DNA of 63,144 nt, filler included, from Jimgerdemannia flammicorona (Eukaryota), in assembly GCA_003990765.1 (NCBI GenBank). It is 2 parts of 2 records of this genome, joined end to end, with 100 filler letters (N's around TTAATTAATTAA, not from the genome) between each part and the next. Parts side by side here need not be neighbours in the genome. Positions count along the whole stretch, not along the records: positions 1 to 31,526 come from RBNJ01000390.1; 1 more part is not named here. One strand, written 5' to 3'. The notes beneath the pieces are model-generated. The model was not told the DNA's origin and did not search any database. It saw only the letters and a list, made by a program, of their open reading frames with translations. The position numbers were made by a program, and so were the translations under genes. Positions 667-41,200 of this stretch are shown here, piece by piece (position 1 is the stretch's first letter; every line of letters starts with the position of its first letter).

Positions 667-2509
667 CCTCTAGGGTTCTGAGGATCATTGATCGGCCTCT
701 TGGAGGGCAGTCAGACTGTGTTGGTCATCAATGACCACAGGGGTGTGGCTTTTCCCCTAGGTCATGGGGTGCCACAAGGTGACCCCTTATCACCAATATT
801 ATATGCCCTCTCTCTGGAGCCACTACTAGACAGGATTCAGCATCAAATCAGGGGTTTGGATATTCTAGAGATAAATTGGAAGGTGGGGGCCTTTGCTGAT
901 GATATGGTGGTTGGATTGGGCTCCTTGGTGGATGTGGGGGAGTTACAGTGTTCTGTAGAATAATATGAGAGGGGATCTGGTGCTAAACTAAACTGGCACA
1001 AGTGTGAGACTCTGGTACTGGGTGCTGGAATTATTGGTGGTGATGTAATTAGGACAGTGGTGCTGGCTGGTGAACCTGTATATTATTTGGAAATCTACTT
1101 CTTGGTGTTTGGATCTCTCCTTTCCTATGCATGGTGGAGCCATCAACTTCTGGAGTGGGGAAATGTTCTGCTGTGATGGGGAGGTCAGCATATGTCCTTG
1201 ACCAGTAGGGTGATGGTGCTGAATGTGTATTGGATGCTGAAGCTATGGTATGTGGGGTATCATTTGGATTTCCTGACCTGAGTGGTCCAGAGGCTATTGA
1301 AGATGGTGAGATCATGGATCTGGGGAGGGCGGCAAAGTCAGGTGGGTTAGAAGGTACTCACCCTGCTAGTGGAGAGAGGTGGGCTGGGCTTAGTGGACTT
1401 TACTAAGCGGCTTCATTGTTTGAGAGCTTGGTGGTTGAGGAGGGCGAGTGAGCTGAGGGGCTGGGAGTGGGTGCCACTCATGCAGAGGGTGTGGGAGGTT
1501 CAGTATTCCCCTTGTGGAGACTCTGGCAACCTGCTTGCAATGGTGGCCATGGATGGGAGTAGGAGGATGCAGTTCATGGGCTTCTGGTGGAGGGTGGTGG
1601 ATAGTGCTAAGAAAATTTGGCTTCAGTGGCAAGGTGATGAAGCAGAGGAGGATTGGGGACTACAAATGTAGCAGTGGGACAGGCTTCTACTGGGTGGTGT
1701 TCTGGTGGAGGATTTCCAGCTTAGAGAGGATATAGAGTACTTGCAGGGCTTGGGTGGAGATCTGTAGCCCAAAGCCTGGTAGAGGGTTGGAATTGGTGAG
1801 GAGTGGGATTGGAATAGACTCTGGCTTTAGAGCAAGCAGGTGAGGCAGTGGTTGCCCCCCAAGTTCTGGGTGGTATGGTGGTGAGTCTTATAGCAGAATG
1901 TGATGTTGAACTATTGGTCTAGGCACTTGGTGGATGGTGGTGTATTTGAGTGTGAGGAATATTTCAATATTGGTCAGGAGGGTGGAGTGATACAAATGCC
2001 TGAACATTGGCTTGGTGAGTGTGAGGTTTTGGAGGAGTTTTGGAGATGTATCATGGACTAGTTAGGGCTGTATGCCCTAGAGGGAGGGGAAGGGGGGAGA
2101 TGGGGAGAGCTCAACTGAAGACTGGTCAGCAGGGTTGGGGATGAATGGCTGACCCTTGGCTGAGCTCTGGTTATATGGGTTGGGTTAGCTGGGCATTGGG
2201 TACATGTATTTGAGGAGGGATGGTGGGTGGGGGTTGGAGATAAGATGGCATATTGGGAATGGTTATTACTGGATATTTTGAATAGCTGGTGGTGAGGGTG
2301 GGGGCTGGGTAAGGGGAATTGCAGGGGTTTGGTACAGTGTATCTCTCAGAAGAGTGGTGGGAGGATTCAGGTAGTGGGTGACTAGGTTGTGTTCAGGCAG
2401 AGGGAGGCTGAGGGGGGAGAGATGGGTCTATGGGGCATTGGTTGAGGGTTTGGGGTGACATTGTATTGTTAGAATTATAGATGGCAGTAATAAAGGGCAG
2501 TCCAAGTAA

Positions 2510-22061: not shown

Positions 22062-22870
22062 TATAATAACTCTTACTTCTACCCCTCTCTTATCCTTTGG
22101 ATAATTAGGGAAGTGGACTATTACTTAGGGACTTAGTACACAATGTGTACCAAGAAGCCTTCAGTTTGAGAAAGCACTTGCTTATAAGTAGTTGTAGTGA
22201 CAGTGTCTTATCTTTCAAAGATCTTTCTCTAGTTTGCCTTTTATTTCAAAGGTCTTTCTCTTGTGCCCTATTTCGAGGGTCTTGTTCTTTGCTATATACA
22301 GACTGAATTTGCCTTAGAATTCAGGTTCAATGGGTTTACTTAAGTCTTTGGGGATTTATATACTGATATTTATTCTGGCAGAAGTTAGCTAGGCTTTTGG
22401 AGTTTAGTCAGAAACACTAGAGTCACTTAGATGTCATTACTAAGACTCAGGGGAATGTATATATATGGGGGGGGGACTTGATTCTTATATTAAGGACTAA
22501 ACTAAAACTGCTTTATTTTGGATAGAAACTGGGGGATATTTATACAAGTTGGTCTATGATTTCTGACTAAGTATGAGTGACTAATTTGGTAACTATAATG
22601 AGGTTTGTGATCACAACCTTTGTCAGGTGGTTTTTGGTAAAGAATATCTTTATGATCAGGACCTCAATTACTAGGCAATGATCAGCAGCTATGGTAACTG
22701 TTGCTGTGGTACCAGTTGTCAGAGATAAGCTAAATATTATTTTCCACATCATTTGTTTGTATCATTATTCATATACTGTGCTCAATCATATGATGACGTC
22801 ATTGCTGGGTTACATGATCGTTCATGATCACTTGTCATGTCCCATCTGTTCACTTGTTCATTCTATTATA
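22062..22870 (-). repeat. 5' LTR (termini mutated to TAT...ATA)
   Basis: 809-bp direct repeat of 13698-14506. Confidence 0.95.
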
Positions 22871-23006
22871 AAGAGGGAGGGGGGGGGAGAAGAGAGGCTC
22901 TATATAAGATTGGGTAAGAGAGATCTTTATACATATATTAATTTTAGTATAATATAGATTAGAGAGTAATAAAGTGAAAGTCTAAGTGACTATAAAAAAA
23001 AAAAAA
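22871..23006 (+). mobile_element. LINE copy B, segment 3: 3' UTR and poly(A)
   Basis: AATAAA...AGTCTAAGTGACTAT(A)n matches the copy C end AGTCCAAGTGACTAT(A)n. Confidence 0.88.
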
Positions 23007-24142
23007 GGACTGACCATTCTCATATAAAGCAGAGAGCCTATTATTAGACTAATTAACTAGAAAGAATTTACATCTAGCTAGTAGCTTTATTTCAGTAGAC
23101 TTCTTATTTACTAGATGTTCTGCTGGTTCTGGGGTCCTAAAATAAACTTCTGATATATATATAAGATGCTGATTATTGCTATAGGTTATTAATAATCTAA
23201 AAAAGTTATTACAGAGATTGAGCAATATATTTTACCTTAAAGTCTTAAACTAGATCTTAGGAGTTCTTGAGGTTAATTAGTAGTTTTTAAGTAGTATTAT
23301 ATTCAGAGTAGCCTATTTATTTGACCAGATATTCAGGATTATGATAGTAGATTCATTTATCAAGAATTTTCTTAACTTTATACTTAATATGGTCTTCAAT
23401 AATTACAAAGACAGATGGCTTGGAAATTTGACCAGAGTAGAGTAGTGACTGATTTTAGATCTTGAGATATAATATATGAAAGACTAGATATACTTTCATA
23501 GTTTCAGATAGCTTAAGACAATAGGAGGATACAGAGACTTATTTAGTAATCTTGAAGGATTCAATATACTTAGGTTGAAATTTATTCAATAAATGATTAA
23601 CTTGAGATTATATCTTGAGATTCTCAGTAGATAGTAGAATTTGATTACTAATAATATAGGTAATATTATAGTATTTTTTGTTAGTATACTTGACTTAATA
23701 CTATTGAGTCTTTTGGAGATTCATAGTAGTAATCTTGAGTAGTTCATCTATTTTGTCTATGAGATTCTTAGTAATAGAGACTTATATTTAACTATTTTTT
23801 CTGAAAGAGACTAGACTTATAGAGATTTCAGAATCTTGACTAATACTTCCAAATAAATTAAATAAATTCAAATTAAATTAAATTGAGAGTCATTCAAATT
23901 GAATCAAATTGGAGATTTTTTTTGATTTAAATCAAGTTTAAATCAAATCAAATTTGAATTAAATTGAGAGTTTGATTCAATCTCTATTTTTCAAAATATA
24001 ATAACTTGATAAAAAATATATCCAAATTTAATGATCTTTAGCTTGTTAGATCCCTCTTATATAGAGAAATCTAATAAGTTAAAGATTATTAAATTTTATA
24101 TATATATATTTTTTAAATATTCTAATAGAGTATATTAGCTAT

Positions 24143-24147
<5 letters not shown>

Positions 24148-24183
<36 letters not shown>

Positions 24184-24838
24184 TTTTTTTTTTTTTTTTT
24201 TTTTTAATAGACTTGAAGTTCTGTAGATTTTTATTAGAAGAGAATCTAGACTATATAGGTCAAAACTCTCTTCCACTACCTCTTGAGCACTATATCTCAA
24301 TTAAACCTAGGCTAGCTATTGTCTAATAGTTTAATTATACTAGATATAGTAGGGCTTATATTAATCCATATCTTATTCTATATACTATACTCTCTCTACT
24401 ATTAGAGAGAAAACAACTATATACTAATGATCAAAGACATATATCTGAAACCTCAATATATATATATAAGACTATATTCAAGTCAAATAAAATAGTCTCT
24501 ATTACTTCAAATAATATAATAGATAAAGAAAAATCCTCATCAAAGTACAGAATAATAGATAAGACCTCATTCTTCTCAATAAGATAAGTAGAGGACTTAT
24601 ATGTAAGAGAGTCAGCTATAGAATTCCTATAAATAGTATTTAGTAATATTATATAATATATAATTTTTTTAAAAATAATAATAAAGATAATTAGTCAGAA
24701 ATCTATATAGAAATATCTATCAAAATTTCTATATTTAATTAGTATAATTATTATCTACTATACTAATAGTAAAACTATATGAATACTTTTCAAAAATAGC
24801 TAGTAAAAAATTATTATCAACTATTATATATATATTTA
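24148..24838 (-). mobile_element. Degenerate minus-strand copy of the poly(A)-tailed element seen at 30331-31526; interrupted by the PLE and continuing from 29328
   Basis: Poly(T) at 24148-24205 is followed by AATAGACTTGAAGTTCTGTAGATTTTTATTAGAAGAGAATCTAGACTATATAGGTCAAAAC. This matches the reverse complement of 31460-31520 with mostly transition differences. Confidence 0.75.
24587..24838 (+). repeat. Left copy of a ~250-bp direct duplication flanking the PLE
   Basis: AGTAGAGGACTTATATGTAAG...ATATATATATTTA is near-identical to 29328-29583. Confidence 0.92.
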
Positions 24839-25174
24839 GAGGAGGAAGAAGGCCCAGCAGGAGCCAAGAGAGCGAACCCAGAGCCAGTGTCAAAGCGAAC
24901 GGAAGACATGTGGAAAGGTATGTATAAGGGGGACAAACAAAGAATGTAACCGAAAATGCATCAGCTGTTTATTGCCATGTAAAAATGTGGTCCTTATATA
25001 CAAAATATGATGTCCCAAAAGGGAGGACGCACCATAACTCAGGGCGAACCGAATTAAGAACCACATGACCACCAGAGATAAGCGGAGATAAAGGGGGAGC
25101 CAATCCCAGTTGCAGGATAAAAATCACAAACAAACACAAACAAAACAAATCCAAATCGAGATTAAAAAACATCC
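24838..25174 (-). repeat. Inverted copy of the distal 337 bp of the pLTR
   Basis: Reverse complement of 25326-25666 and 28990-29326. Confidence 0.95.
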
Positions 25175-25667
25175 TTGCTCCCTTCGGGGTCTCACGCTCG
25201 CTCCGGGGTCTTGGCCTTACTCCGCTCCCCTCCGCTGCCTTTGGCCCCTTGCTTCGCTCGGGCTCGCTGCGGCTCGCTCCGTTTCAGCCTCACCCCTTGC
25301 TCGCGCTCACCCCTCCGGGGTCTGCGGATGTTTTTTAATCTCGATTTGGATTTGTTTTGTTTGTGTTTATTTGTGATTTTTATCCTGCAACTGGGATTGG
25401 CTCCCCCTTTATCTCCGCTTATCTCCGGTGGTCATGTGGTTCCTAATTCGGTTCGCCCCGAGTTATGGCGCATCCTCCCTTTTGGGACATCGTATTTTGT
25501 ATATAAGGACTGCATTTTTACATGGCAATAAATGGCTGATGCATTTTCGGTTACATTCTTTGTTTGTCCCCCTTATATGTACATGCCTTTCCACATGTCT
25601 TCTGTTCGCTTTGACACTGGCTCTGGGTTCGCTCTCTTGGCTCCCACTGGGCCTTCTTCCTCCTCTG
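25160..25667 (+). repeat. 5' pseudo-LTR (structured 181-bp module, TATA-like TATATAAG near 25500, AATAAA at 25527, start of ORF1)
   Basis: Direct repeat of 28825-29327. Confidence 0.92.
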
Positions 25668-26815
25668 CTGTACCGCCTGCCCTCAGGGCCTCCGTCCTCG
25701 TCGATGAGCTCATGGATGAGGTACTTCCTCCTCCTCCTCCTCCCCCTGCCTTCACCCCCACCACTGTCTCCTTCGAGACCTACATCTCTTCTGCTATCCT
25801 TTCCCTCCCCCTGGACCTTTGTCCTTCTGGTTGTCCGCTTCTCTCTCAGTTCCGGTCGGTTCTTGCCCTCTCTGCTAAGGAGGCTCGTCTCTGTCATGAT
25901 GTCGACATCGTCGCTCCACCTGCCATCTGCTACTCTGTTCTCCCCGAGGCCCGCCACCAAGCCCTCTCCAAAGAGATTCATGCTGCCACTGCCACCGCCA
26001 AGCTCGCCACCGCTGATGCCGCCACTGCTTCCGCCGCCACCGCTTCCGCCTCCTTCCAACGTGCCTGTGCCACTTTCATGGCCTTCACCTCCTCCCGCCT
26101 TTTGGATACTGCCCCCTTCTGTGGCTTCGCCATCCAAGACATTCCTTTGGTCGCCGCCGACATTAACGTTGTATGTCATTTCCTCCTCACCGGCACCTCT
26201 TTTGTTGCTCGCCTTCATGAGCAGGAGTCATCATGTGCCGCCGCTGCTGCTCGCGCTGCCGCCACTGCTCCTCTGCCTGCCTCCCCCGAGGTTTCGGTCT
26301 CCGAGGCCATCCATGCCGAAGCTCGCGCTGCTGCTCATGCTGAGGTTCGTTCCTTCGCCACTGCTGCCGCCAAGGCCCCCTCCAAGACCCCCGCCAAGAC
26401 TCCCGCCCAGCCCAACCAGGCTTCGTTGGCCTCTTCTCAGTCCCCCTCCCCCGCCAAGGCTTCCTCCTCCATTCCCCCTGCCCCTAAGCATGGCCGCCAA
26501 CTTGGTTCTCGCCCTGTCAGGGCCTGGCCTTACGCTGTCTGCTCCAGTCACCTCCACCATGCCTACTGGTACCTGGCCAAGTCCATCTGTCCCCATGGTG
26601 GTGTTCCTCGCGCTGCTGCCCCTTCGGCTGCTCGCTCGCCCTCGGCCTCCTCTACCAGTTCCTCCTCCGCCTCCTCTCCCTGTGCCCCTGAATGTAAGGG
26701 CTACACAAAAGCCTGTGGCCACAAGGTCTGGCACTCTGATGGGGTGTGCTCTCGTTCGTCGAGTTCACCACCTTCAAAAAAAGTCAGAGGGAAGGGGAAG
26801 GCCTCCCACTCTTAA
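25595..26815 (+). CDS. PLE ORF1, ~406 aa; Ala-rich helical middle, Cys/His clusters and basic C-terminus; function unknown
   Basis: Uninterrupted ORF (track 25532-26815). The ATG at 25532 is not present in the other pLTR copies (ACG/ACA), whereas ATG 25595 is conserved in all three and follows the TATA-like box. Confidence 0.75.
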   Translation: MSSVRFDTGSGFALLAPTGPSSSSAVPPALRASVLVDELMDEVLPPPPPPPAFTPTTVSFETYISSAILSLPLDLCPSGCPLLSQFRSVLALSAKEARLCHDVDIVAPPAICYSVLPEARHQALSKEIHAATATAKLATADAATASAATASASFQRACATFMAFTSSRLLDTAPFCGFAIQDIPLVAADINVVCHFLLTGTSFVARLHEQESSCAAAAARAAATAPLPASPEVSVSEAIHAEARAAAHAEVRSFATAAAKAPSKTPAKTPAQPNQASLASSQSPSPAKASSSIPPAPKHGRQLGSRPVRAWPYAVCSSHLHHAYWYLAKSICPHGGVPRAAAPSAARSPSASSTSSSSASSPCAPECKGYTKACGHKVWHSDGVCSRSSSSPPSKKVRGKGKASHS

Positions 26816-26901
26816 ACTTCCCCCCAGTGTGGTTCTCCCCTGGTGTCCCCGTCCCTTCTCGGATTCTGTTGTTGCTTCTGGTGCACCCTGAGTGGTTCCT
26901 C

Positions 26902-28830
26902 ATGCTGTTCCCCCTTCGTCTTTCCCAGTTGCTTGTCCCGAACTTTCGGGTTTATTCTTCTCTTGGAACACTTTTGTCTCCTCCTTTTTCTTCAGCTGAC
27001 TGCCCCCTTTCTCCCCTTCAAGTCTTTGTCTTATCCTTGGGTCCTTGCTTTGTTTTTCCTGCGACTCCCTCACAATTCTCCTTCACTGATCTGGCTCATC
27101 TAATATGTTTTCGTCGTGCTCTTGACCTTGCCATTTTCTTTCAAGATCGTGGTGAGATGCCCTCTCGCTATTTTGTTCCTAGCGATTGGGTCCCCCCTCC
27201 CAATGTCTCTTTACACTGCGTATTCCTCGACATGGCCTGCTCACTATCCGTTCCTGGACGAGCTCGCTCTTGCTTGGTTTCGGACCATGCCATGCGTACC
27301 ACGCTTAAATCGGTCAAGCAATTGCCTATGCATTTGCTCACAGTCACTAATAAGAATCAGGGTTTTGCACTTATTCCTAAGTCGCTCTACCTTAATGGCC
27401 TTTCTGCCCTCCTTCAAGCCATGGCTTATGAGCCTAGTGCTCTTGGATTGGATGAGATTCTCACTCTTCTTCGGGTTTCTCTGACTCATGCTAGATTGCT
27501 TTCGGATTCCCTGCACGCGAACCCTATTTTTAACTTCTTCCAGGACTCTTTGTCCTTCTCAGATATCTCTCTTCTGGTTTTCTATGCTCTTCCTAAAGTT
27601 CACAAGCCTACTTTGGCTTGGTGTCCTATTACGGCTGCCTACAGTTCTCCTACCACCGAGATTTCGAAGTGGTTATCCCACTTCTTTCTCTCCTGGATGG
27701 CTCTCTTACAACACCGTCTTGGGCCTGAGTATACTATTCTTCATGATACTCAGGAGCTCGCCCATCTCTGCTCCACCATTGTGTCTGTTCACCGTTTTTC
27801 CCATTTGGCCTCTGGTGACTTCTCTTCCTTCTATACTGCTATTCGTTTTGATGAGATCGATGATTGCCTTCGCTTCTTGAGTTCCTTGGTTTTTCCCTTG
27901 GATTCCCCAGTTTCGCTGGCTTCCATTGTTGAGCTTACGCTCCTCGTCTGTGGCTCTAATTATTTTGAGTCAGCCCTTGGCTCCTTTCACCAGACTTCTG
28001 GTATTGCCATGGGAACGAATTGTGCCCCCACTCTTACCAACCTCGTTGGCCTGGCCCATGAATTGTGTGCGTTACATGATATTACTTCACCTCTTTCCAT
28101 TGCGTTCCAGGCTGGGGATATCTTCTTTTGCTGATACATTGATGACTTTATTGCCTTCGCTGTTGCTGGTATTGATATCCCTAGTGTGTTCCTGGGTGTC
28201 TACTCTCCCCATCATTCTATTACTTGGGTGTGCGGTATGACTAGTATTCCCTTTTTGGACCTTTCCATTTCTCTTTCTCCTTTCCGAACTGTTGTTTATT
28301 CCCATTTTTCCCGTTCCCAATAGTTCCCTGACTTCTTGTCCAACCATCCTCATCGCACTCTTCTTGAATGTGTTCGTGGTGAGGCTCGTCGTCTTGCACT
28401 ATGCTGCTCCCATCATTCTGATTGGATGTCTGCTGTTCAGGTTCTTGGCAACTTCGTGGTCCATCGTCGTGCCTACCCTATTTCTATCATTCGCGATCTG
28501 CTTACTTCTGTTGAATGGTCTGTTGTTCGCTCTTCCCTCCTCTCTCCCCTTTACCCCCCCTCCCTTCCCTCTCTCCCTCCTTACCCTATCTGTACCCCCT
28601 CTTCTTTCCCACCCCCGATTCTCGTCGTACCATTTGATTGTGCTCGCTGGGTTGCTCAACGCCCTGATACTGTCCTGCACTCTTCTCTTTCACGCCATGG
28701 ACTTTCATCTCTTTCCTGACACCCTCTGATTGCTCGTTCGCGTCTTTCTTCTGTTTCTTCTTCAATCCATCGCTCTCGTTTTGCGTTTTCGTCACCTTCT
28801 GGTGCCTCCAGTTCTGCCGGAGAGGATTAA
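26902..28830 (+). pseudogene. PLE reverse transcriptase (~642 codons) with three in-frame stops and no endonuclease domain
   Basis: FYALPKVHKP..WCPITAAYSSPT, SGDFSSFYTAI, FHQTSGIAMGTNCAPTLTNL, *YIDD (likely CGA>TGA at 28132), IPFLDLSI and SNHP thumb-like region. One frame throughout, with stops at 28132, 28321 and 28717. Confidence 0.9.
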
Positions 28831-29327
28831 AAAACATCCTTGCCCCCTCCAGGGTCTCGCGCTCGCTCTGGGGTCTCGGCCTTACTCCGCTCCCCTCTGC
28901 TGCCTTCGGCCCCTCGCTTTGCTCAGGCTCGCTGCAGCTCGCTCCGTTTCGGCCTCATCCCTTGCTCGCACCACCCCTCCGGGGTCTGTGGATGTTTTTT
29001 AATCTCGATTTGGATTTGTTTTATTTGTGTTTGTTTGTGATTTTTATCCTGCAACTGGGATTGGCTCCCCCTTTATCTCTGCTTATCTCTGGTGGTCATG
29101 TGGTTCCTAATTCGGTTCGCCCCAAGTTGTGGCGTGTCCTCCCTTTTGGGACATCGTATTTTGTATATAAGGACCACGTTTTTACATGGCAATAAACGGC
29201 TGATGCATTTTCAGTTACATTCTTTGTTCATCCCCCTTATACACGCCTTTCCACATGTCTTCCATTCGCTTTGATACTGGCTCTGGGTTCACTCTCTTGG
29301 CTCCCGCTGGGCCTTCTTCCTCCTCTG
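28825..29327 (+). repeat. 3' pseudo-LTR
   Basis: Begins GATTAAAAAACATCC (overlapping the RT stop codon) and ends ...GGGCCTTCTTCCTCCTCTG. Confidence 0.92.
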
Positions 29328-29583
29328 AGTAGAGGACTTATATGTAAGACAGTCAGCTATAGAATTCCTATAAATAGTATTTAGTAATATTATATAATAT
29401 ATAATTTTTTTAAAAAAAATAATAAAGATAATTAGTCAGAAATCTATATAGAAATATGTATCTATCAAAATTTCTATATTTAATTAGTATAATTATTATC
29501 TACTATACTAATAGTAAAACTATATGAATACTTTTCAAAAATAGCTAGTAAAAAATTATTATCAACTATTATATATATATTTA
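29328..29583 (+). repeat. Right copy of the ~250-bp flanking duplication
   Basis: Near-identical to 24587-24838 (a few substitutions and one 4-bp indel). Confidence 0.92.
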
Positions 29584-30330
29584 AGTCTAAGCTAAGAATA
29601 ATCAAAATTAAAAATAATAATAATAATATAAAATATCTATCATTAAAAGATAAGAGTAAGTAAAAACTAAAATATAAGTCTAAAAATGAGTTCTATTTCT
29701 TAAAAAGTTATTAGAATATATTAAAAAGTCTCAAATAATATTATAAGAATTATATAAGCTATACTAATATATAAATATATATAATAATATTTAAAATAAA
29801 TTAAATTAAATCAAATTTGACCCCAATTCAATTTGAGTATTAATTTAAACCTTAATTTTCAAAATTCAATAACTTAATAAAAATATATCTAAATTTGACA
29901 AAATTTAGCTTATTAAATTTTTTTATTTAGAAGAATTTAGTATAATAAAGATTATCAAATTTAGATATATTTTAGTTGAGTTATTATATTTTAAAGTTTA
30001 ACTCTTAATTTTAAATTAATTAGATCTCAATTTGATTCAAATTAAATTAAATCAAATCTTAATTCAATTAAAAAATTCTAATTCAAATCAACTTTAATTT
30101 AATTTGATTTAAATTAATTCAATTTATTTAGGAATATTATCTCTGATAATAAGTCTTATATATATAATGAGACCATTCAATTTTCTAACAACCAAAGGTA
30201 AAAACAAATAATAAATAAAGAATATAATTTACTTATCAAGAATATATGAAATCTAATATCTCTTCTATCAAACTGATAAGCAATCAGATCATATTAAGTA
30301 TATAAGATGTATAAGAGTAATAGAAGTAGG

Positions 30331-31526: not shown

Positions 31527-31626
31527 NNNNNNNNNNNNNNNNNNNNNNNNNNNNNNNNNNNNNNNNNNNNTTAATTAATTAANNNNNNNNNNNNNNNNNN
31601 NNNNNNNNNNNNNNNNNNNNNNNNNN
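31527..31626. other. Artificial contig-joining spacer (N44-TTAATTAATTAA-N44)
   Basis: 100-bp N block with a central six-frame stop linker. Confidence 0.97.
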
Positions 31627-32860: not shown

Positions 32861-34703
32861 TTTAGGTATACAAGAGAGGGGTTGTGGATGGTTTGTCTTC
32901 AACAATCGAGCGAACAGTCAAAGTGGCCACAGCTCGGAATTTCGGAGTACCCCCAGTGATCCCATCACACACTAAACCTTAATTTCGAGGACCAACCAAC
33001 ATCACCAGTGACGTTACTTTGACTAAACAGAAAGCGCCGATAGTGATAGTCGGCGCGAATTATTTTTAGATTGGCCACACATTACGGAGCTGAGCCGTGT
33101 GGTTTCCTGAACAGTGAGCTTCACTGCTGTGCTCTGAGCCATGCCATAGTATCTTCATTGTGTAGTTTGGCTGAGCACCGAGCTTTTGCCATGTAATTTG
33201 GCTGAGTGCAGTATTCAAAGTCACTTATTTAACTATAATATTATTAGTTTAAATTAATTGATATTAGAATATACTTAACTATATTTATATTTATAGAAAG
33301 TAATATATTAAAGTACTTAAATTAATTATAATTTTGATAATTAGAAAAGTATTATTTTCTACTATTATAATAGCTATTAAAAAACTATTATTAAAATTTT
33401 TGATAAAAGATTTAATATCAAATATTTAAAAAGAAAAAAGTTATAAATATTTAATAAAGATTTATACTAATAATTTCTTATATTTATAATAAATATAATT
33501 TTTATAATATAAGAAAATATAGATTAAAGTTAGTATATCTTTAATAATTTATAAACTAATTAATAAGTTTATTTATTTAAAAATTTAGAATATTTTATAT
33601 AGCTAAAATTAATATATATATTACTTTGATTTAAATATATTTTATTAAAATATTATCTAATTTTGAAGCTATAGAGTTTATTTATTTATTTATTATTTAA
33701 AAGTTATTATTTAAACCTTCTAATAAATTTAATATTATTAAAATTATTTTATTTTATTTTTATTAAAATATAATAAAAATATTTATTTAAATTAAATTTA
33801 TATTCAATTTGACTAATTCAAATAGAAGAATCTCTAACTTAATTTATTTGATAGTATTATTATATATTTTATAGTTATTTTAACTAGAGATCTATTTTTA
33901 AAATAGTTATATTATATAAAAATAAGAGATATACTAACTTTAAAATATTATATTTATCTTTTATATTAGTATAATATCTTTTATTAATAGGGGGTTTCAA
34001 AGTTAGTTATAAAATTCTAAATATTGAAAAAAATTTAATCAATCAGATTTAATTTAGAATTCTATACATATCTGACTGAGATTTAAACTTTCTTATAAAT
34101 TAGTTTATCTATAAAAAGATATATATTAAATTATTATTGAAAATATATCTTCTTCTATCTATTATAGTAAAGCTTATAAAGTGTATAAGATATCTAAAAG
34201 GTAGGAGAATGATAATATTGATAGAGAACTATTCTTAATGAATATTATTTTTAACTAAATTATATTAGAGATAAATTATATTAGATAAAAGAGAGATATA
34301 GAGAAGTAATAAAGCAGACTCTTTATAGAGAGATAGTTGGCCTTTAAAGGAAGCTAATATTTATTATTATAATAATACTGATATATATCTGGATAAGACT
34401 ATTAGATCTCCAGATTATCTATATTAAGGCTTAGAACTAAAGTGAGAATATAGAAGAGAAGATTTGAGCAAGAGATAGAGATAATATAGAGATAATAATT
34501 TAGAGTATACTTTGGGCTTTGTTCTTTATCAACTAATTGAATTTATATTAAATGAAAATTCCTATCTAATAATAGCTATTTTTAAAAAAAGATACAAATA
34601 CTAGGATATTCTATACATATCTAGTCTTTACTAATAGAACCTCATCTTAGCTGAGGTTTACAGCTGATAACTTAGGAGATAATAATATTACTGAGAAACA
34701 GAG

Positions 34704-34736
<33 letters not shown>

Positions 34737-35429
34737 GAAATAACAATAATAGCAATAATACTAATAGTAATAATAATATTAATGATAGTAATAATAGTAA
34801 TGATATTAATAATAATAATAATAATAATAATAACAATACTAATAATACTTCTCTTAGCTCTGAGAGGATACCAGTGAGATAGAAAGATGAGAAAGTATGT
34901 GGCTGGGTGATAGGAAAGAAGCCAATAAGACTTAGAGTATCTGACTACTCTCAGAAGAAATTAAAGCTCTTATTGAGTAATGTTTTTTTTGATAGAAAAT
35001 ATAGCAAAAAATGAGAGAGCAAAGGATGCTCTGAACTTCATAAAGAGAAAATAAATAGAGAAGTATAAACTAGCAAAAAAGATATTAGTAATAGAGAAAA
35101 TAAAGGCTAAGACTGAGAGAGCTTTTGTAAAGACTTTATTGATAAAATTATTAAGCAATCTGAGTATATTATAGGAGGATATCTTAGAGTAGCTAAAGGA
35201 TTTGTAAATATAAATTGATTTATATAAATATAAATATATTTATTATTAAAAGTATTAGATATAAATAAGCTTATATAAATTATTATTTTTTCTAATATTT
35301 TAGAGTGAGATATTTTATAAATCTTTAGTAATATTATCTTTTTTATATATATTGTATTTTCAAAGTTTTGCAATATATCTCACTCAAGGCCTCACTAAAC
35401 TTTCTAAGGCCTCACCATACTTTCCAAGA

Positions 35430-36200
35430 CCTCACTGTACTTTCTCTTTTCTAGTCTCATTTCAATACTTATTACTCATATATACTTCTTATTTATTTTA
35501 GTATCTCAACTATACTTTTTGAAGCCAGCAATTTAGTCAGATATATTTTAGATCTCTTTTCTAACTTTATCACTCAATTTAAGACCTTATTGCACTTTTA
35601 TGACCTTACTACATTTTCTTATTTCAATATATCTCACTCATTTTAGTACCTTGACTATACTTTCTACATATTTCAGCATCTTGACTATACTTTTTAGAGC
35701 CAGCAATTTAGCCAGATATATGTATATACTTTAGATCTCTTTTCTGACTTTATTACTCAATTTAAGATCTTATGTACTTTTCTAATCTCACTGTATTTTC
35801 TTATTTCATATATCTTACTCATTTCAGCATCTTGACTATACTTCTTATATATTTCAATATCTCAACTATACTTTTGGAATCAATAATTTAGCTAGATATA
35901 CTTTAGATCTCTTTTCTAGTTTTATTACTCAATCTAAGATCTCATATACTTTTTTGATCTAACTTATTTTCTTATTTCAATATATCTCACTCATTCTAGT
36001 ATCTTGACTATACTTACTTATTCTAACACTCTAACTATACTTTTCAGAGCTAGCAATTTAGCCAGATATACTTCAGATCTCTTTTCTGATCTCACTACTC
36101 ATTCTAAGATCTGATTATACTTTTTAAGACTTTACTGCACTTTCTCTTTTCTGGTCTCTCTCATTTCAATACATCTTGTTTATCTAGCACCTCAACTATA
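35430..36200. repeat. Degenerate tandem repeat, ~4 copies of a ~170-185-bp unit
   Basis: Anchor GATCTCTTTTCT recurs at 35551, 35734, 35906 and 36076, each preceded by a variant of CAATTTAGCCAGATATA. Confidence 0.8.
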
Positions 36201-38399
36201 CTTTATTCTACTCTATTTTCAACTACTATCTCTTTATATACCATTTCTTCTATCTAGGAATAAGATAATATATAGTTTTATACTAATATTTCTTCTACTT
36301 ATCTGGAAGTAAGACAACATATAGTCTTATACAGATATTTTCTACAAAATATTTTTTCTTCTCTTAATATCTAAATACTACCTTTATATTAATATTCTCA
36401 AAAAGCTCATAATAAAAAAAAAGTCAAAATATATATAAAATAGTTGAAAAAGATAAGAGAATATAATACTCAGATCTGAGATACATATATAGAATTTGCA
36501 GTCCAATAATTCACTATAAGAAGTAACTTTAAGCAGATCAGACTCTGATACATATTTGAGCCCTATGGACACCCTAGCTCTATACTATAGTACTGTACTA
36601 GCAGTACTACAAAGCAGAGCCAAGGAGGTAGTAAAGCCTAGCAAAAGTTCAAACTAGTACTACAAAATAAGATTGGTGGAGTTAGTAGAGGAAGTATGCA
36701 AAATTTATAACTCTCCACCAGTAGCAAAGAGCAGCTCCAAGCTACAAGCTAGTGCAGGAGTCCAGATTAGAGAGAGTATGCAAAATTTGTAGCCCAATGA
36801 CCTACTGTGAAAAATATCTTCAAGCAGTTGGACTCTAGTACAGATTGGACTCTAGTGTAGATTGAACTCTAGTATAGATTCAGGTCTTGTGGACATTCTG
36901 GCTCTATGCTATAGTATCATACTAATAATACTATAAAACAGAGTCAAGAGATCAGTAGAGTCTAGCAAAAGCTAAAAACTAGTACTACAAAATAGTTGTC
37001 TAACTCTTATAAAAGACTGTCTAATCTTTACAAAAAGACTGCCTAGCCTAATCTTTACAAAACTGCTCCATCTGTTAGTTCCAGGTCTTGATGAGTCTAT
37101 TATCTATTATGAGTACAACTACTATAGTATTTGAGCTCTCCTCAAAGATAATAATACCATAGAGGTCATGTGGTTGAAATAGGATAGCCATGTTGACTGC
37201 AAACAGGACCTCAAAACCATAGATGAGATTATACTAGATATTACTACTGTTCTCTCAAGTTGGGTCCTTCTTCTCTAGAATATAAAATATTACTAGAGTG
37301 ATATTACTATCTATATATATAGGTAGAGAAATATTATACTCAATGTATTCCAATGTGATACAAGTATATGGTTGAGTGAACTCTTAGCCCAGGATCTCAT
37401 ATTGTTAGATAGTACTAGAGAATATCTATTCTTTATCTAGCTCTAGAAGTCTTAGCTTGAAAATCTACTGAAATAAACAGTATCTTATCAATTCTTTTTG
37501 TATATAAGTGGGCAGAAACTCTCAGACTATATCAAAAAAAAGTCAAGCTTCTCACCTCATATGGTATGCTAAATTGTATCAAGAATATACATATAGCTAT
37601 ACTGAGAGTACTATTAAGCTAGTCTGCTGTTTACTCTAGCAATCTGCTCAAAGAACTCTAGATCATGGCTACCATTACTGTACAGATCATGTTATGCTTA
37701 CATGTAGCTTATTCTTTGACAATACTTTTAAAGTTTCAATAAGAATATAGAATTCTGTATATTTTTAGAAATTTAACAAAAATATATTAGTAAAAAAAAT
37801 CTCAAAAAAAAAAAAGATAAATGTGAAGGATTTTGGAAAAAAACTCTAGAAAATCCACTCTTTGCCAATATTGTAGTATATCTAATTCTCATCCAAACTC
37901 TCTCTCCTTACTTTTATACTCTCTTTTTCCTATCACTTGATATTTGATATAATTCTTGCAAATCTTATTAATATAGTAATAAAGCTTATTACCATAAAGA
38001 TTTCTTATCACCATCACAATAATCTCTCTATATTTATTAATAATGATATAGTTCTCTTTGTTATTGAGTACTCCAGTAGGCCAATGAACTTCTTGATTGA
38101 GAATAATTGGCTCTGATTAGAATATAGATCTCAAGCCTTAATAGTAATACTGATATTGTTCATATTAAATAACTTAGCCTTAAACTTTCTAATTTAATTA
38201 GATACTGAATATGATCAAACTTAGGTAACTTTGAATTCTCCTCTATAGTGAAACTGAGCCTTGATCTGAGTAGTGAACTGAGTTAAGTATGCAGATAGAT
38301 TATATGTATATATATAAGTATTATATAAGAGTTTTTAGGAAAGAATATATAAAAATAAAGTTAAATAAAATACAAAGTAAGTATTCAGAAAAAAAGCAT

Positions 38400-38475
38400 A
38401 AGAATAAGTTGTATGCAGATAAGTTGCATGCAGATGAGTTATATGCAGATGAGTTATATATAGATGAGTTATACA
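38400..38475 (+). repeat. 15-bp tandem repeat (GATRAGTTRYATRYA), ~5 copies
   Basis: Directly visible. Confidence 0.8.
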
Positions 38476-38724
38476 AGATTACTCATAAAGGCTTGCTTCT
38501 AATCTTTTTGAAATCTCCACTATATAATATATTGATTCAATAGCTCAGTCACCAAAAGTATATCTTATAACATTCTCCAGCCTTTCTTCATCTTGATCAG
38601 ATATTGCAAATAAAGTTGACAGATCTTGTTAAAGAGCTATAGACCTTGAGAGAAAGAGAAATAGTATAAAATTAACTTAGTCATATTATGGGAATTTAAA
38701 TATAGTGACAAAAAGACAATCTAT

Positions 38725-39380
38725 ATCTACTATTAGCTACTCTAAAAAGACTACTACATATGTAGCTATGAGGTCTATGAATTCTGAGATCTGAAGAATT
38801 ACTATAAATTATTACTGAAATTCTCTCTTATCTTCATTATTGTCATTGCCATTACTATCGCTATTACTATTGTCATCACTACCACTATTTTGGCTCTTAA
38901 TAAGTAGTTTGTATACTACCTATATAAGAAAAAAATTTAATATTATTAGTAGAGAGTACTTTTCCATTTTAAATATTCTCTCTTTTGATAATCATTAGAT
39001 AAAAAAATAAGTAAACCAATATATGATTAAGGGCTGCTATTTATTTATTTATGATATAGCTAGAGAAATAAAAAAGAATATTAGAGAACAAAGAAAGAGA
39101 GAATAAAGAAATAGAGAATAAAGAAAGTATAATATCACCAAAGATAAAAAGAGAGTGATATCATCAAAGATAAAGAAAGAGTGATATCACCAAAGATAAA
39201 AAGAGAGTAATATCATCAAAGATAAAGAAAGAGTGATATCACCAAAGATTTCAAGTGATCTAAATTAATTTAGATCAATTCAGATTAGATTATATAATCA
39301 ATCTGAGTTGATTTAAATCTATTATATGATAAATCCGAATTAAATCTCATCCAGATAAATTGCATTTATTAGGAGTACTA
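38725..39380 (-). mobile_element. Hypermutated paralogue of the 1-666 transposon terminus (the element extends further left)
   Basis: Colinear with 1-666, and differences are overwhelmingly C>T/G>A. Confidence 0.85.
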
Positions 39381-41200
39381 GTTGACTATCAAAGTTGGAT
39401 TCCTTACTCTTACTTTCAATCTTACATATCCTTATTGGAAGAATTTATAAGTTTCTGGAGAATTAGGGCTTGCTCAAGATTCTTAAGAAGAAGTTAGTAT
39501 TTAGATCTTTGAGATATTTTCAAGATGAGGTGAGTTAGGGTAAATTTTCTAGAGTTTTATAAATTTTTCCTACAATTTCAATAGTCAGAGACTGTTGAAA
39601 TTATAGAAATATAGAAAAAAGTTATAGAAAAAATTTGACCAATTACATTACTTTAAAATTCTTAAATTTTCAATATTTAGAATTCTATAACTAACTTTGA
39701 AACCCCCTAATACTTTAGAAGATATATTAAAAAAAACTATAAGTTTTTATATTTAGTATAAAATTAATTAGTAATATAATTTTTACTATAATATTAAGAT
39801 TGAAAAAGAATAAAACATTACTTGGTCTTATTATTACAATCTTTACTTATTATCTAGTTTCTTATTATTATAATTTTTTATAAATATATATAAAAATGAG
39901 TTATTTATATCAGCTTATTGAATAATATTTTAGCAATTTTTACTAAAGTAAATTTGAAGTTTACCAAAGTTGAGAAGTGGTAGAAATACTATCAGCTCAG
40001 AAAGAAGTTGAAAAGAAGCAGGCAGATAACATTTACAATTTAATAAAATATTAGAGTGACCGAGAGATCTAAAAATGCAAGACAAGCTGAGGGTTTCTTA
40101 ATTCTCTTGGCAGCAGCTGCATGAAATTCAGTGTTTAATTTAGATATTGTGTTATTTGATTATGATAACAAAACTGGAAGTTGTGTGGCCAATCTAAAAA
40201 TAATTCGGGCACCGCCGAGTTGTGACCTATCGACGCTTTAGAAACCCCTAACAGGAAGAAAGTCACCTCATGTGTGTACATAATCGATCCTAGTGGAATG
40301 AATATCCACACGTCACAGCTAAACATAGCACACCACAGATTAAGCCTCCTTTGTTACACACAAAGGCGCTTGCTTCGTACTTATCACCCCACTCTCGTCC
40401 TCTTCCTGCTAAGTTGCTTATTACCTATAGAAAGCCCAAATATTCCTATACCAATATGCACATACTCATTTAGAAGGGAATGGTAAAGTCACGCATAACA
40501 CATGATCCTCCGTTATCTTATCTCTGATCCAAGCGGAAAATATACGCGTGGGAAATCGGCAAAATGAAACCAACCGATCGACGTGATCGCTTGTGTTAAT
40601 CGAACTCGGTTGAGCTTGTACAAGCCGCAGCGACAACGATTCCAGACGTGAGATACATGTACATTGTGTATTGAGCAACGTGGCAAATAAAAATCAATGG
40701 CGAGCGAGGGGCAAAGGTTTGGTAATGAGGTTAGCGGTAATAAGGGCATTCAATGGTCTTGGCAAAAGCAACCTGATCCGACCCTCCGACTATCTAAAGC
40801 TTGACTCATCGTCAGTATACGTTCCGGCTCGGCGAGACACTACATCCGAACCTACGCTGCTCGGTTCCGCATATCCATCCTCCCGAGATTCCGAGACACC
40901 TAATTCATGCGTGCCGGAGTATCCAGAGCACCGAAAGAACGCGTACGCACATTAGTCATCCTACCCACATGACAGTGGAAGGGCCACATGATTCTGTCGT
41001 GCTTCATCCTTGATGCGGACGTAATAGTAGCTCTAGACGGAAATGAGTCTAATGAGTGGCATCAAGATCAAAGGCCAGAATCCTGGACGAGGGTACCAAC
41101 CAGGTATGGTATTGTGGCGCGTGATCTCTTGGCGTGGACAGAGAGCGTGACGCAAAATGCGTGAAGTCGTTTCTAGTCACGAAATCGAACAGAGCATCAG

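Follow-up and report, generated by a model that had tools for sequence, protein, structure and literature searches.

Each direct pseudo-LTR of a decayed Penelope-like element (PLE) in Jimgerdemannia flammicorona opens with a 181-nt module closed by a perfect 15-bp inverted repeat, and one strand of this repeat is exactly the sequence over which the direct and inverted pseudo-LTRs overlap. We put at about even the chance that the module is a palindrome for junction formation and fold-back priming, acting on the minus strand, a reading drawn from one insertion. Junction palindromes are already known in animal elements, where they are much shorter; the module is a large variant of this known feature. 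A first-pass annotation had described it as a branched single-stranded DNA fold on the cDNA strand; that observation was confirmed in part, and the interpretation placed on it was supported in part.

The module is hosted by a single decayed Penelope-like retrotransposon without an endonuclease, at positions 24838-29327, which occurs once within the window (the whole stretch of DNA that was analysed, 63,144 nucleotides with filler). Its layout runs from an inverted, truncated pseudo-LTR through a direct pseudo-LTR, ORF1 and ORF2 (the reverse transcriptase) to a second direct pseudo-LTR (Table 1). The outer end of the inverted pseudo-LTR is the same terminus as the 3' end of the element, with ...CCTCCTCT common to both. 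The pseudo-LTRs are ~505 bp long, the module being their first 181 nt, and the remainder (the arm) is present in three copies that have diverged about equally (92.7-94.2% identity, chiefly by transitions), consistent with a single insertion event. A 252-bp duplication flanks the insertion, with each duplicate adjoining one element end; the mismatches between duplicates are two substitutions and one 4-nt indel. Decay is apparent from reading frames broken after 28134 and from repeat copies that differ by 6-8%, and a minus-strand purine bias spans the whole element.

Table 1. Coordinates of the element, its repeats and its flanks, counted along the window.
Feature	Position	Strand	Remarks
Flank duplicate, left, AT-rich	24587..24838	.	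250 of 256 columns match 29328-29583; behaves like a target-site duplication
Pseudo-LTR copy, inverted, 5'-truncated	24838..25174	-	94% complementary to 25326-25666 and 28990-29326
5' pseudo-LTR (module and arm)	25160..25667	+	91.7% identity to 28825-29327
S, 5' strand of stem, GATTAAAAAACATCC	25160..25174	+	inverted arm ends at 25174, direct repeat starts at 25160; again at 28825-28839
Interior, copy 1	25175..25325	+	quasi-palindrome; GC-GAA-GC at the minus-strand centre
S*, 3' strand of stem, complement of S	25326..25340	+	opens the arm that all three pseudo-LTR copies have in common; again at 28990-29004
ORF1, 427 codons, start within pseudo-LTR	25532..26815	+	no Pfam match
ORF2, N-terminal and core part of reverse transcriptase	26740..28134	+	LPKVHK, GDFSSFYT, GIAMGTNCAP; frame disrupted past 28134
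ORF2, C-terminal part, frame-shifted	28324..28719	+	translation lined up by eye with the C terminus of P0001
Module copy 2 (S, interior, S*)	28825..29004	+	downstream of ORF2; 3' untranslated region if transcribed
3' pseudo-LTR	28825..29327	+	direct repeat of 25160-25667
Flank duplicate, right	29328..29583	.	pairwise match to left copy

The reverse transcriptase is of the PLE type. Its motifs align with those of relatives (LPKVHK, RPI, GDFxSFYT, GIAMGTNCAP and RYIDD), and they include the form LPK(I/V)HK, which we take to be typical of PLE reverse transcriptases. Among 837 relatives at E<=1e-3, RVT_1 was detected in 14 of 20 high-ranking matches scanned and GIY-YIG in none of these 20, with GIY-YIG lying C-terminal to RVT_1 in 5 of 51 further matches scanned, three of them at or above the Pfam cut-off. 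The placement of the module in a PLE pseudo-LTR, as first annotated, was therefore upheld, as the direct repeats at 25160-25667 and 28825-29327 flank a reverse transcriptase ORF with distant relatives that combine this domain with GIY-YIG. The same PLE-type relatives, some with GIY-YIG, rule out an LTR- or DIRS-type element. A profile search against the PDB gave one weak reverse transcriptase match (E 0.0014), of no help for classification. The overlapping arrangement of ORF1 and ORF2 is also present in relatives, the closest protein being P0001 (52% identity), encoded on a 1271-bp contig. In a tree of unnamed proteins and metagenome loci, the reverse transcriptase falls in a small clade with P0001, P0003, P0004, P0007 and P0009, separate from metagenome relatives that bear hammerhead-like cores and CCCTAA-like words. 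At the N-terminal DKN/DKG position (the DKN motif is so named in a section of PMC13159263), relatives read TDKNLG and the element TNKNQG, as a G-to-A change in a decayed copy would give.

PLE pseudo-LTRs are defined, in the relevant part of PMC8557442, as partly tandem and often accompanied by a neighbouring inverted 5'-truncated copy, and both features are present here. The element carries no C-terminal GIY-YIG domain of the kind that marks canonical EN+ PLEs (Penelope/Poseidon, Neptune and Nematis), and the absence of an endonuclease domain is shared with the telomere-associated EN- PLEs (Athena and Coprina). No GIY-YIG match was found in the scanned ORFs of the element, and ~105 nt are left between the end of ORF2 (28719) and the module, therefore too little space for an endonuclease domain.

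Two copies of the module, at 25160-25340 and 28825-29004, and the 15-bp stem that closes each of them perfectly were borne out as first described. Of the 181 aligned columns, 17 differ between the copies, 16 by a transition and one by a 1-nt indel, and 13 of these 17 are at CpG sites. In both, the stem encloses ~151 nt of C/T-rich DNA; on the plus strand, the interior of copy 1 is 44% C, 27% T, 25% G and 3% A. TRF found no tandem repeat within the module, which rules out a tandem-repeat origin. The inverted pseudo-LTR ends in S and each direct pseudo-LTR begins with it, such that the two orientations overlap by exactly this 15-nt stem strand.

The nearest known anatomy is that of Penelope elements in the rotifer Adineta vaga, which do contain an endonuclease, as set out in the parts of PMC3846280 devoted to them. 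Those elements also have two direct pseudo-LTRs with an adjoining shorter inverted one, a palindrome at the 5' end of the pseudo-LTR, a TATA-like motif, an ORF that starts inside the pseudo-LTR and a target duplication around the insert, and self-priming has been proposed for them. In Pen2a_Av the overlap between inverted and direct copies is likewise 15 bp. A 5' palindrome that forms this overlap was found here at 25160-25174, with its partner at 25326-25340, and the pair recurs in the 3' pseudo-LTR. The A. vaga pseudo-LTRs have 5' palindromes of 18 bp and 38 bp (PMC3846280), whereas the palindrome here extends over 181 nt, comprising the 15-bp stem and ~151 nt of imperfect, strand-biased interior; for Pen2a_Av, the lengths given in that source imply a palindrome of ~52 nt. 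The flank duplication is 252 bp here and 8-10 bp in A. vaga, and the GIY-YIG domain of the A. vaga elements is missing here, as is a hammerhead core.

A perfect 15-bp inverted repeat with a spacing of 151 nt lies far above chance expectation and is seen in both copies. These observations bear on the view that the module is a functionless, compositionally biased and low-complexity spacer of a dead element, with its inverted repeat arising by chance or inheritance. The decay of the element (its broken frames and its repeats 6-8% apart), the modest statistics of the interior described below and the element-wide extent of the strand bias would all suit such a spacer, but we consider it highly improbable: the 15-bp repeat coincides with two independent boundaries, and a 15-bp overlap together with 5' palindromes recurs in unrelated Penelope families, according to passages of PMC3846280.

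The idea of self-priming or a second-strand origin in the first-pass annotation fits this anatomy, in which the inverted/direct overlap is exactly the 15-nt stem; self-priming at palindromes of inverted pseudo-LTR junctions had already been published for rotifer Penelope elements in 2013 (in part of PMC3846280). Under the fold-back priming that we favour, the head-to-head junction would be made at the module palindrome. A minus-strand cDNA that has just finished copying S would carry S* at its end, and this end could pair with a minus-strand S, found either within its own molecule, by folding back, or in a second short cDNA, which would have been primed from the other target strand and have an identical reverse transcriptase start site. 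Extension of the paired S* end would then yield the observed order of inverted arm, S, interior, S* and arm. The strand that folds or anneals would be the purine-rich minus strand, as first-strand cDNA or as an antisense transcript, the latter being a proposal of Arkhipova et al. 2013 (sections of PMC3846280). A PLE protein has been found to cleave and extend both target strands, with the same reverse transcriptase start sites on both (PMC11167929). As an endonuclease is lacking, both of the 3' ends used for priming would be supplied by a break already in place, with a stagger of 252 nt.

Other features of the module would suit a promoter-upstream role. Its 5' copy lies 160-340 nt upstream of a TATA-like TATATAAGG motif (25500-25508), which may have a promoter role and is followed by the ORF1 ATG at 25532, and this copy sits between two divergent copies of the motif. 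The word GCTCGC occurs four times on the plus strand of the 181-nt module compared with nine times in the 3157-nt internal region, GGGGTCT is found by eye three times on the same strand, and the observed/expected ratio of CpG is 0.97 and 0.82 in the two module copies versus ~0.6 elsewhere in the element. Portions of PMC8557442 and PMC3846280 also locate the PLE promoter in the pseudo-LTR. The module could therefore be promoter-upstream sequence with a GC- and CpG-rich, enhancer-like interior of sites bound, on double-stranded DNA, by proteins of the host or the element, and the 15-bp repeat a microhomology or the scar of an old inverted junction; the interior is indeed without excess stability under DNA or plus-strand RNA parameters. 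The same-strand words and the position upstream of the TATA-like motif count against fold-back priming. We nevertheless regard a promoter-upstream role as rather unlikely, as it does not account for the exact coincidence of repeat boundary and inverted junction with the 15-bp inverted repeat, for the quasi-palindromic order of the interior or for the excess stability specific to its minus strand.

That stability was assessed by folding both strands under DNA and RNA parameters and comparing them with shuffled sequences. The whole module folds more stably than shuffles on both strands, with z -2.8 to -4.0 under DNA parameters and -4.2 to -6.8 under RNA parameters; as plus-strand RNA, one copy reaches -67.0 kcal/mol (z -4.2) and the other -62.6 kcal/mol (z -4.3). 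The 151-nt interior alone shows no excess under DNA parameters on either strand of either copy (z +0.6 to +1.1), nor does a C/G-restored state, in which each C/T or G/A difference between the copies is set to C or G (z +0.2 to +0.7). As plus-strand RNA, the interior gives z 0.0 and +0.4 (restored, -1.0), and as minus-strand RNA -3.3 and -2.2 (restored, -4.2). Among 45 other 151-nt windows of the element folded as minus-strand RNA, none reached -3.3 and three reached -2.2. The proposed single-stranded DNA fold on the cDNA strand thus stands as far as strand is concerned, the excess being minus-strand specific, but this excess appears under RNA parameters and is absent for the interior under DNA parameters. 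The latter result counts against fold-back priming; against the fold first annotated it is weak evidence, since GNA triloops and sheared G.A pairs have no term of their own in the nearest-neighbour DNA parameters applied. Alignment of the interior with its own reverse complement gave a score reached by 5 of 1000 shuffles for copy 1 and 37 of 1000 for copy 2, and this quasi-palindrome is in register with the 15-bp stem.

The minimum-free-energy fold is a long, imperfect rod-shaped hairpin that counts 54-56 bp and, in copy 1, ends in a GC-GAA-GC tip. The ~151-nt interior pairs as 12-13 short G-C helices, separated on the minus strand by loops made entirely of purines. Long-range pairs of the GGGG/CCCC, GGCC and CGCG type occur in every predicted fold, as expected from the nested stems first annotated, and the G.A motifs held up as well, the internal loops of the minus-strand fold consisting solely of G and A, including GA/GA and GGA/GGA. 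Four GCGAGC motifs are present per copy on the minus strand, of which the outer pair alone is symmetric about the centre. Between the copies, 48 of 55 pairs of the minus-strand fold are the same, five have one-sided changes that still pair, one has a two-sided change that still pairs and one is broken, and the 17 differences are spread over 8 of the 110 paired positions and 9 of the 71 unpaired ones; these comparisons, between two copies in one dead element altered mostly by CpG decay, are uninformative.

Small GNA hairpins were the basis of the original description, in which the 15-bp stem surrounds four mini-hairpins. Copy 1 has ACCCC-GGA-GGGGT, GC-GAA-GC and CCC-GAA-GGG on its minus strand, and copy 2 has ACCCC-GGA-GGGGT and GCC-GAA-GGC, each with a C-G closing pair (5'-C...G-3') around the GNA loop. 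In the C/G-restored sequence the four coexist, placed almost mirror-symmetrically at positions 21, 84, 96 and 152 of the minus strand, but they are a composite of the two copies, neither of which holds them all; the prevalence of CpG differences (13 of 17) makes the restored state plausible as the ancestral one. GNA triloop hairpins with a stem of at least 3 bp number two per copy on the minus strand, against 0.23-0.24 expected, a count matched by 22 and 18 of 1000 shuffles, and zero on the plus strand; as the purine bias is element-wide, the G/A loops are in part compositional, a point against fold-back priming. Unusual stability has been described for d(GCGNAGC) mini-hairpins and for d(GNA) loops closed by C-G (in parts of PMC13037366 and PMC3201870), and the folding parameters omit it. 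As in such DNA, GCGAAGC lies at the minus-strand fold tip of copy 1; here, by contrast, the 7-mer stands in a purine-rich strand and reads GCAAAGC at the equivalent place in copy 2.

In the first-strand cDNA, a branched form with four C(GNA)G mini-hairpins enclosed by the 15-bp stem could act as a reverse transcriptase terminator or as a protein-binding platform. We consider this very improbable: the predicted structure is a single rod, no predicted fold of copy 1 contains the four-way form, each present-day copy has only two to three of the hairpins, and the two CCCC-GGA-GGGG words pair equally well with each other in the rod. Nor are the minus-strand GNA loops kept in any relative, GCGAAGC being on the plus strand in loci L011, L012 and L014.

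In relatives, a hammerhead-like core lies where the module is found here, as had been proposed. In 10 of 28 related metagenome loci, one plus-strand match to CTGANGA-N(4-30)-CGAAA lies between ORF2 and ORF1, outside the long ORFs or at their very edge by ORF coordinates. Several relatives also have an 11-bp perfect stem around ~50-130 nt that contains a CTGANGA word, with the full core pattern in L010 and L025 and the word only in L011, L012, L015, L016 and L017. The hammerhead domains of PLEs (Cervera and de la Pena 2014, in part of PMC4209133) have the same unit position, from the end of ORF2 to the start of ORF1, and in some relatives a long-range stem closes the domain, but the CUGANGA...GAAA core is missing from the element here: a pattern search for CTGANGA...GAAA found none in its non-coding parts on either strand. 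No Rfam family matched at E<=10, and none reached the gathering score. A hammerhead ribozyme and other Rfam families were rejected on these results. Rfam silence is weak evidence, as Rfam also missed the cores of the relatives, and the conclusion leans mainly on the pattern search. The possibility of a leftover hammerhead helix III was discarded, no core being adjacent to S. Hammerhead motifs are present in the pseudo-LTRs of all PLEs except Naiads and most Chlamys, in the account given in a section of PMC8557442; the pseudo-LTRs here have none.

With copy 2 downstream of ORF2, where it would be transcribed, the module might instead be a plus-strand RNA element of the 3' UTR, a stem-closed domain that is bound by the reverse transcriptase or ORF1 protein, or that serves transcript processing, and stands in for the hammerhead-like domain. 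The whole-module plus-strand energies and the cores and 11-bp stems of relatives are compatible with such an element. It nonetheless appears quite unlikely, given that the plus-strand interior without the stem does not exceed shuffles and that the Rfam search, weak as its silence is, and the core search were negative.

A search of metagenome contigs with the reverse transcriptase recovered the 28 distant loci, with 26-36% identity in 27 of them and a match of 20 residues in L027; an alignable module was present in none of the 28. The same search gave no match in viral or genome contigs, and a 24-nt word spanning S* and the arm likewise had no match in either. Among sequencing runs, one soil-metagenome DNA run contained 0.08 of the sampled words, and no RNA run was listed. 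Fold-back priming therefore has against it that it concerns a single insertion, for which the contig searches found neither a second module copy nor an alignable relative.

Two ORFs, with an ORF1 followed by a reverse transcriptase-only ORF2, and direct terminal repeats of a few hundred bp are shared with the endonuclease-deficient Athena and Coprina elements; Coprina-1_Alen, for example, combines two ORFs and a DKN motif with repeats of 422 bp (in part of PMC13159263). The fungal-looking genomic context also fits this group. In contrast to Athena and Coprina, the element here lacks reverse-complement telomeric repeats at its 3' end, a telomeric position and a hammerhead core, and does possess an inverted pseudo-LTR and duplicated flanks. 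The window contains no dimer of CCCTAA or TTAGGG, ruling out a telomeric-repeat tract, and the single CCCTAA in the element lies within ORF1. As endonuclease-deficient fungal and protist PLEs are described in passages of PMC3846280 as being without the direct/inverted pseudo-LTR organisation, the analogy with A. vaga crosses clades, which also weighs against fold-back priming. A broader scenario, which we hold to be doubtful, is that an endonuclease-less PLE lineage exchanged the hammerhead and telomere-repeat module of its relatives for a 181-nt strand-asymmetric fold-back element. Whether as cDNA or as antisense RNA, its purine-rich minus strand, with C(GNA)G triloops and tandem G.A pairs lending it stability, would prime or join the second strand and so enable intrachromosomal integration at long-staggered breaks with Penelope-type repeats.

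Fold-back and double priming have precedents in other systems. In twin priming, which produces LINE-1 inversions, each of two target 3' ends primes a cDNA, and short complementarity joins the two products; what is inverted there is another segment of the element, and the join involves a few bases. At the rolling-hairpin termini of parvoviruses and the telomeres of Streptomyces, a terminal fold-back supplies the primer, and the hairpins, to which dedicated proteins bind, form the physical ends of the DNA. The hairpin here lies inside the repeat of a retroelement, and the likeness to these termini raised in the first-pass annotation is one of resemblance only, the module being internal to a chromosomal retroelement and not at a replicon end.

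The origin of the direct and inverted repeats of PLEs is still unsettled, their complex structures having been attributed to the GIY-YIG nuclease (a section of PMC8557442) or to self-priming at junction palindromes (parts of PMC3846280). The insertion described here has a complete Penelope-type layout without a nuclease, a hammerhead core or telomeric repeats. Should it prove a one-off, it would be no more than a common decayed copy of a transposon. Should it instead typify its family, this layout would depend on RNA and the reverse transcriptase and not on a nuclease, and the 181-nt, minus-strand-biased junction palindrome would offer a concrete in vitro substrate for fold-back priming and the joining of two cDNAs.

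The segments at 25160-25340 and 28825-29004 are genuine copies of one repeated module. Aligned over 181 columns, they show 17 differences, of which 16 are transitions and one is a 1-nt indel; with C or G assumed to be the original state, 13 of the 17 are at CpG. Each copy opens with S (GATTAAAAAACATCC) and closes with S*, the exact complement of S, and the two form a perfect 15-bp stem that encloses 151 or 150 nt. S doubles as the inner end of an inverted repeat and as the 15-nt start of each direct repeat, and the outer terminus of the inverted copy is that of the 3′ repeat. The excerpted text of Craig et al. 2021 (PMC8557442) describes insertions of Penelope-like elements (PLEs) as partial tandems that give rise to pseudo-LTRs (pLTRs), often with an inverted 5′-truncated copy at the 5′ end. 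The direct and inverted repeat layout found here, together with ORF2 relatives that include GIY-YIG carriers, bears out the first-pass assignment of the module to a PLE pLTR. The three copies of the arm share 92.7-94.2% pairwise identity and differ mostly by transitions, which fits a single insertion followed by decay. Immediately past S*, a T/G-rich 10-nt unit (ATTTGTGTTT, or CACAAACAAA when read on the opposite strand) is repeated 2.6-2.7 times at the start of the arm; it is not a canonical telomere repeat.

Coordinates of the element, its flanks and the variant cores in metagenome relatives
Feature	Position	Strand	Remark
Duplicated flank, left copy	24587-24838		
Inverted arm	24838-25174		
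10-nt T/G-rich unit	25350-25375, 29014-29039		mirrored at 25125-25149
Direct repeat (module and arm)	25160-25667		
ORF1	25532-26815	+	starts inside the repeat, 23 nt past the end of the TATATAAGG motif
Internal region	25668-28824		
Direct repeat	28825-29327		
Duplicated flank, right copy	29328-29583		250 of 256 columns identical to left copy
CACTGAAGAAGG...ACCCGGAATTAC variant, L011	2500-2633		
CACTGAAGAAGG...ACCCGGAATTAC variant, L015	2564-2698		
CACTGAAGAAGG...ACCCGGAATTAC variant, L014	about 2390-2420		

ORF2, on the plus strand, overlaps ORF1 in the -1 frame and ends 105 nt before the module; its motifs LPKVHK, GDFSSFYT and GIAMGTNCAP precede frameshifts that break the frame. The -1 overlap (26740-26815 in the window) recurs in two-ORF metagenome units where both ORFs are visible (6 of 6 checked: L005, L006, L007, L009, L016 and L021), and no plus-strand RNA window of the element scored a lower z than 26691-26841 (-3.14). 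This group of PLEs may carry a programmed -1 frameshift signal there.

ORF2 had 837 relatives at E ≤ 1e-3. Among 20 high-ranking matches scanned, 14 carried RVT_1 and none GIY-YIG; a C-terminal GIY-YIG domain, the canonical Penelope-like architecture, was present in 5 of 51 further matches scanned, and no ORF scanned in the window matched GIY-YIG. A quick 42-row tree paired the window RT with P0001 (SH-aLRT 100), the closest protein relative of ORF2, inside a six-row clade (97) apart from the GIY-YIG rows and the metagenome loci. Identity to the 28 metagenome loci was 26-36% for 27 of them, and the match of L027 spans 20 residues only. Most of these loci are 3.0-3.6-kb units assembling as tandems or wrap-arounds, with a spacer of 310-560 nt between ORF2 and ORF1 in the eleven units where it was cleanly measurable. 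The contig end exactly repeats 60-127 bp of the start in L002, L006-L009, L011-L014, L016-L018 and L026, and a single 11.8-kb contig (L021/L022) holds a 3196-bp unit in three identical copies; related RT units therefore assemble as 3.0-3.6-kb tandem arrays or circles. The module had no alignable counterpart in any relative.

According to excerpts of PMC8557442, only Naiads and most Chlamys among PLEs lack hammerheads. A single match to CTGANGA-N(4-30)-CGAAA, always on the plus strand, was found in 10 of the 28 metagenome loci (L001-L005, L010, L018 and L023-L025), which ORF coordinates place beyond the long ORFs or right at their margins; the core in L002 reads CTGAAGAG-GGTCT...AGATC-CGAAAC. 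An 11-bp perfect stem encloses the core in L010 and L025, and in L011, L012, L015, L016 and L017 it surrounds a CTGANGA word that is not part of a complete core. As first proposed, the module occupies the site of this hammerhead-like domain, and it could be a plus-strand 3′-UTR RNA domain in its place. No match to a known ribozyme was found: a direct pattern search of the non-coding parts of the element found no hammerhead core, and Rfam gave no match to the module or element in the window, which is weak evidence because Rfam release 15 also misses the cores of the relatives, reporting none at gathering score (all loci) or at E ≤ 10 (eight loci).

Several other features of the metagenome loci were observed. 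A conserved CACTGAAGAAGG...ACCCGGAATTAC core in which GGAA replaces the expected GAAA is, from its sequence, a candidate hammerhead variant; it lies within an 11-bp perfect stem in L011 and L015 and has none in L014. GCGAAGC occurs just past the ORF2 stop, twice in L011 and L012 (one of them TCAAGC-GAA-GCTTGA, with a 6-bp stem) and once in L014, in each case on the plus strand and thus on the strand opposite to that in the window. CCCTAA-like words were read by eye in several loci.

The plus-strand interior is extremely skewed in composition (C 44%, T 27%, G 25%, A 3%). The first-pass annotation had placed four GNA mini-hairpins inside the closing stem. The repeat copies and the stem stand, but CCCC-GGA-GGGG (twice), GCC-GAA-GGC and GC-GAA-GC coexist only when all C/T and G/A differences are restored to C/G, at minus-strand positions 21, 84, 96 and 152 of 181, nearly mirror-symmetric. 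Copy 1 itself has ACCCC-GGA-GGGGT, GC-GAA-GC and CCC-GAA-GGG on the minus strand, and copy 2 has ACCCC-GGA-GGGGT and GCC-GAA-GGC. Nor did folding return the proposed four-way single-stranded DNA structure: for both strands and copies, with DNA and RNA parameters, the minimum-energy fold is a single long imperfect hairpin, in which the 15-bp stem is joined by 12-13 short helices (1-5 bp each) to a total of 54-56 bp, and the suggested comparison with replicon termini was not upheld. In the predicted minus-strand fold every internal loop is G/A-only, GA/GA and GGA/GGA among them, with GC-GAA-GC at the tip in copy 1. On the cDNA, the branched mini-hairpin form could be the active one, yet by these predictions it would be an alternative conformer at best.

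Against dinucleotide shuffles, the whole module folded better on either strand and with either parameter set, with z-scores for DNA of -2.9 (minus strand) and -2.8 (plus) in copy 1 and -4.0 (minus) in copy 2, and for RNA of -4.2 (plus, copy 1), -4.3 (plus, copy 2) and -6.8 (minus, copy 1). The 15-bp stem supplies most of this signal. Without it, the interior gained nothing over shuffles with DNA parameters (z +0.6 to +1.1; restored, +0.2 to +0.7) or as plus-strand RNA (0.0 and +0.4; restored, -1.0), and beat them only as minus-strand RNA (-3.3 and -2.2; restored, -4.2), in line with the minus-strand bias first suspected. Among 45 other 151-nt windows of this purine-biased element, none reached -3.3 and three reached -2.2. 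These predictions give a modest structure signal on the minus strand, seen with the RNA parameter set, which rewards purine mismatches as the DNA set does not; it may or may not extend to DNA. Alternatively, the interior could belong to the upstream part of a promoter and work as double-stranded DNA: a TATA-like motif follows at 160-340 nt, same-strand words are repeated (GCTCGC four times), the CpG observed/expected ratio is 0.8-1.0, and there is no fold signal for DNA or plus-strand RNA.

Two tests based on sequence alone likewise give a modest signal; the two copies are not mutually independent. Of 1000 shuffles, 5 (copy 1) and 37 (copy 2) matched the score from aligning the interior with its own reverse complement. 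Each copy has two minus-strand GNA-triloop hairpins with stems of at least 3 bp, where 0.23-0.24 are expected (equalled in 22 and 18 of 1000 shuffles), and the plus strand has none. Between the copies, 48 of 55 minus-strand pairs are unchanged, five changed on one side and one on both sides while still pairing, and one is broken, an uninformative tally for two copies that decayed together in a dead element. The module could also be without function. All four alternatives (promoter-upstream DNA, 3′-UTR RNA domain, branched conformer and no function) explain less well why both boundaries fall on a perfect 15-bp inverted repeat.

We identify the module as the 5′ junction palindrome of the pLTR, a reading much firmer than the mechanism proposed next for the junction. 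When S has just been copied, the minus-strand cDNA would end 3′ in S*, complementary to S lying 151 nt behind in the same strand, and could fold back. Alternatively, S* could pair with a second, short cDNA whose 3′ end is S and whose synthesis was primed by the other target strand, beginning at the same RT start site. Extension after either event would give the observed arrangement (inverted arm, S, interior, S*, arm); with two cDNAs, the stop of the inverted copy at the normal terminus of the element would also be accounted for. From this one insertion, we put the chances of such a junction mechanism, by fold-back or annealing of two 3′ ends at S/S*, at about even. The self-priming originally suggested fits this junction, and excerpts of Arkhipova et al. 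2013 (PMC3846280) already describe one of the same kind. In the work of Frangieh et al. 2024 (PMC11167929), a PLE protein was purified and shown to cut both target strands and to extend them, with RT start sites that are the same on each and lie slightly more than 100 nt into the ORF. The direct repeat here ends 136 nt past the ORF1 ATG.

The element is flanked by an AT-rich target duplication of 252/256 bp, far longer than the 8-10 bp given for Penelope elements in the excerpts of PMC3846280. This suggests integration at a long-staggered break by a nuclease-less element, which would need a pre-existing staggered break; in the two-cDNA version, a 252-nt stagger would yield the long duplication.

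In content the window resembles fungal-type eukaryotic DNA: it holds a Ty3/gypsy chromovirus integrase, a LINE-like RT, genes for GH47, isocitrate/isopropylmalate dehydrogenase and FGGY kinase, AT-rich blocks and CpG-depleted older transposons. Across the regions compared (1-22000, 22500-24837, 29328-30200, 33000-40000 and 40000-62000), CpG observed/expected was 0.10-0.16 in older transposon regions, 0.0-0.1 in AT-rich blocks (15-25% GC) and 1.06 in the genic region 40000-62000; the element has 0.6-1.0. These ratios point to decay of a methylation- or RIP-like type that targets repeats, and to a comparatively young element. At 31527-31626, TTAATTAATTAA between two 44-N runs resembles an artificial six-frame-stop linker joining contigs, so the window is possibly not one continuous chromosome piece.

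Among four papers returned by a literature search, PMC3846280 alone, judged from the search listing and its own excerpts, treats pLTR palindromes in Penelope; it reports 18-bp and nearly perfect 38-bp palindromes at the 5′ ends of other pLTRs. The junction palindrome is thus of a kind known from animal, nuclease-bearing Penelope, but the module is a much enlarged, strand-asymmetric version, and endonuclease-deficient fungal and protist PLEs are said in the same excerpts not to share such organization. What is new, from a single decayed insertion, is an enlarged junction palindrome in a nuclease-less, hammerhead-less element of a fungal-type genome, one that combines the full direct and inverted repeat layout with a 252-bp flank duplication.
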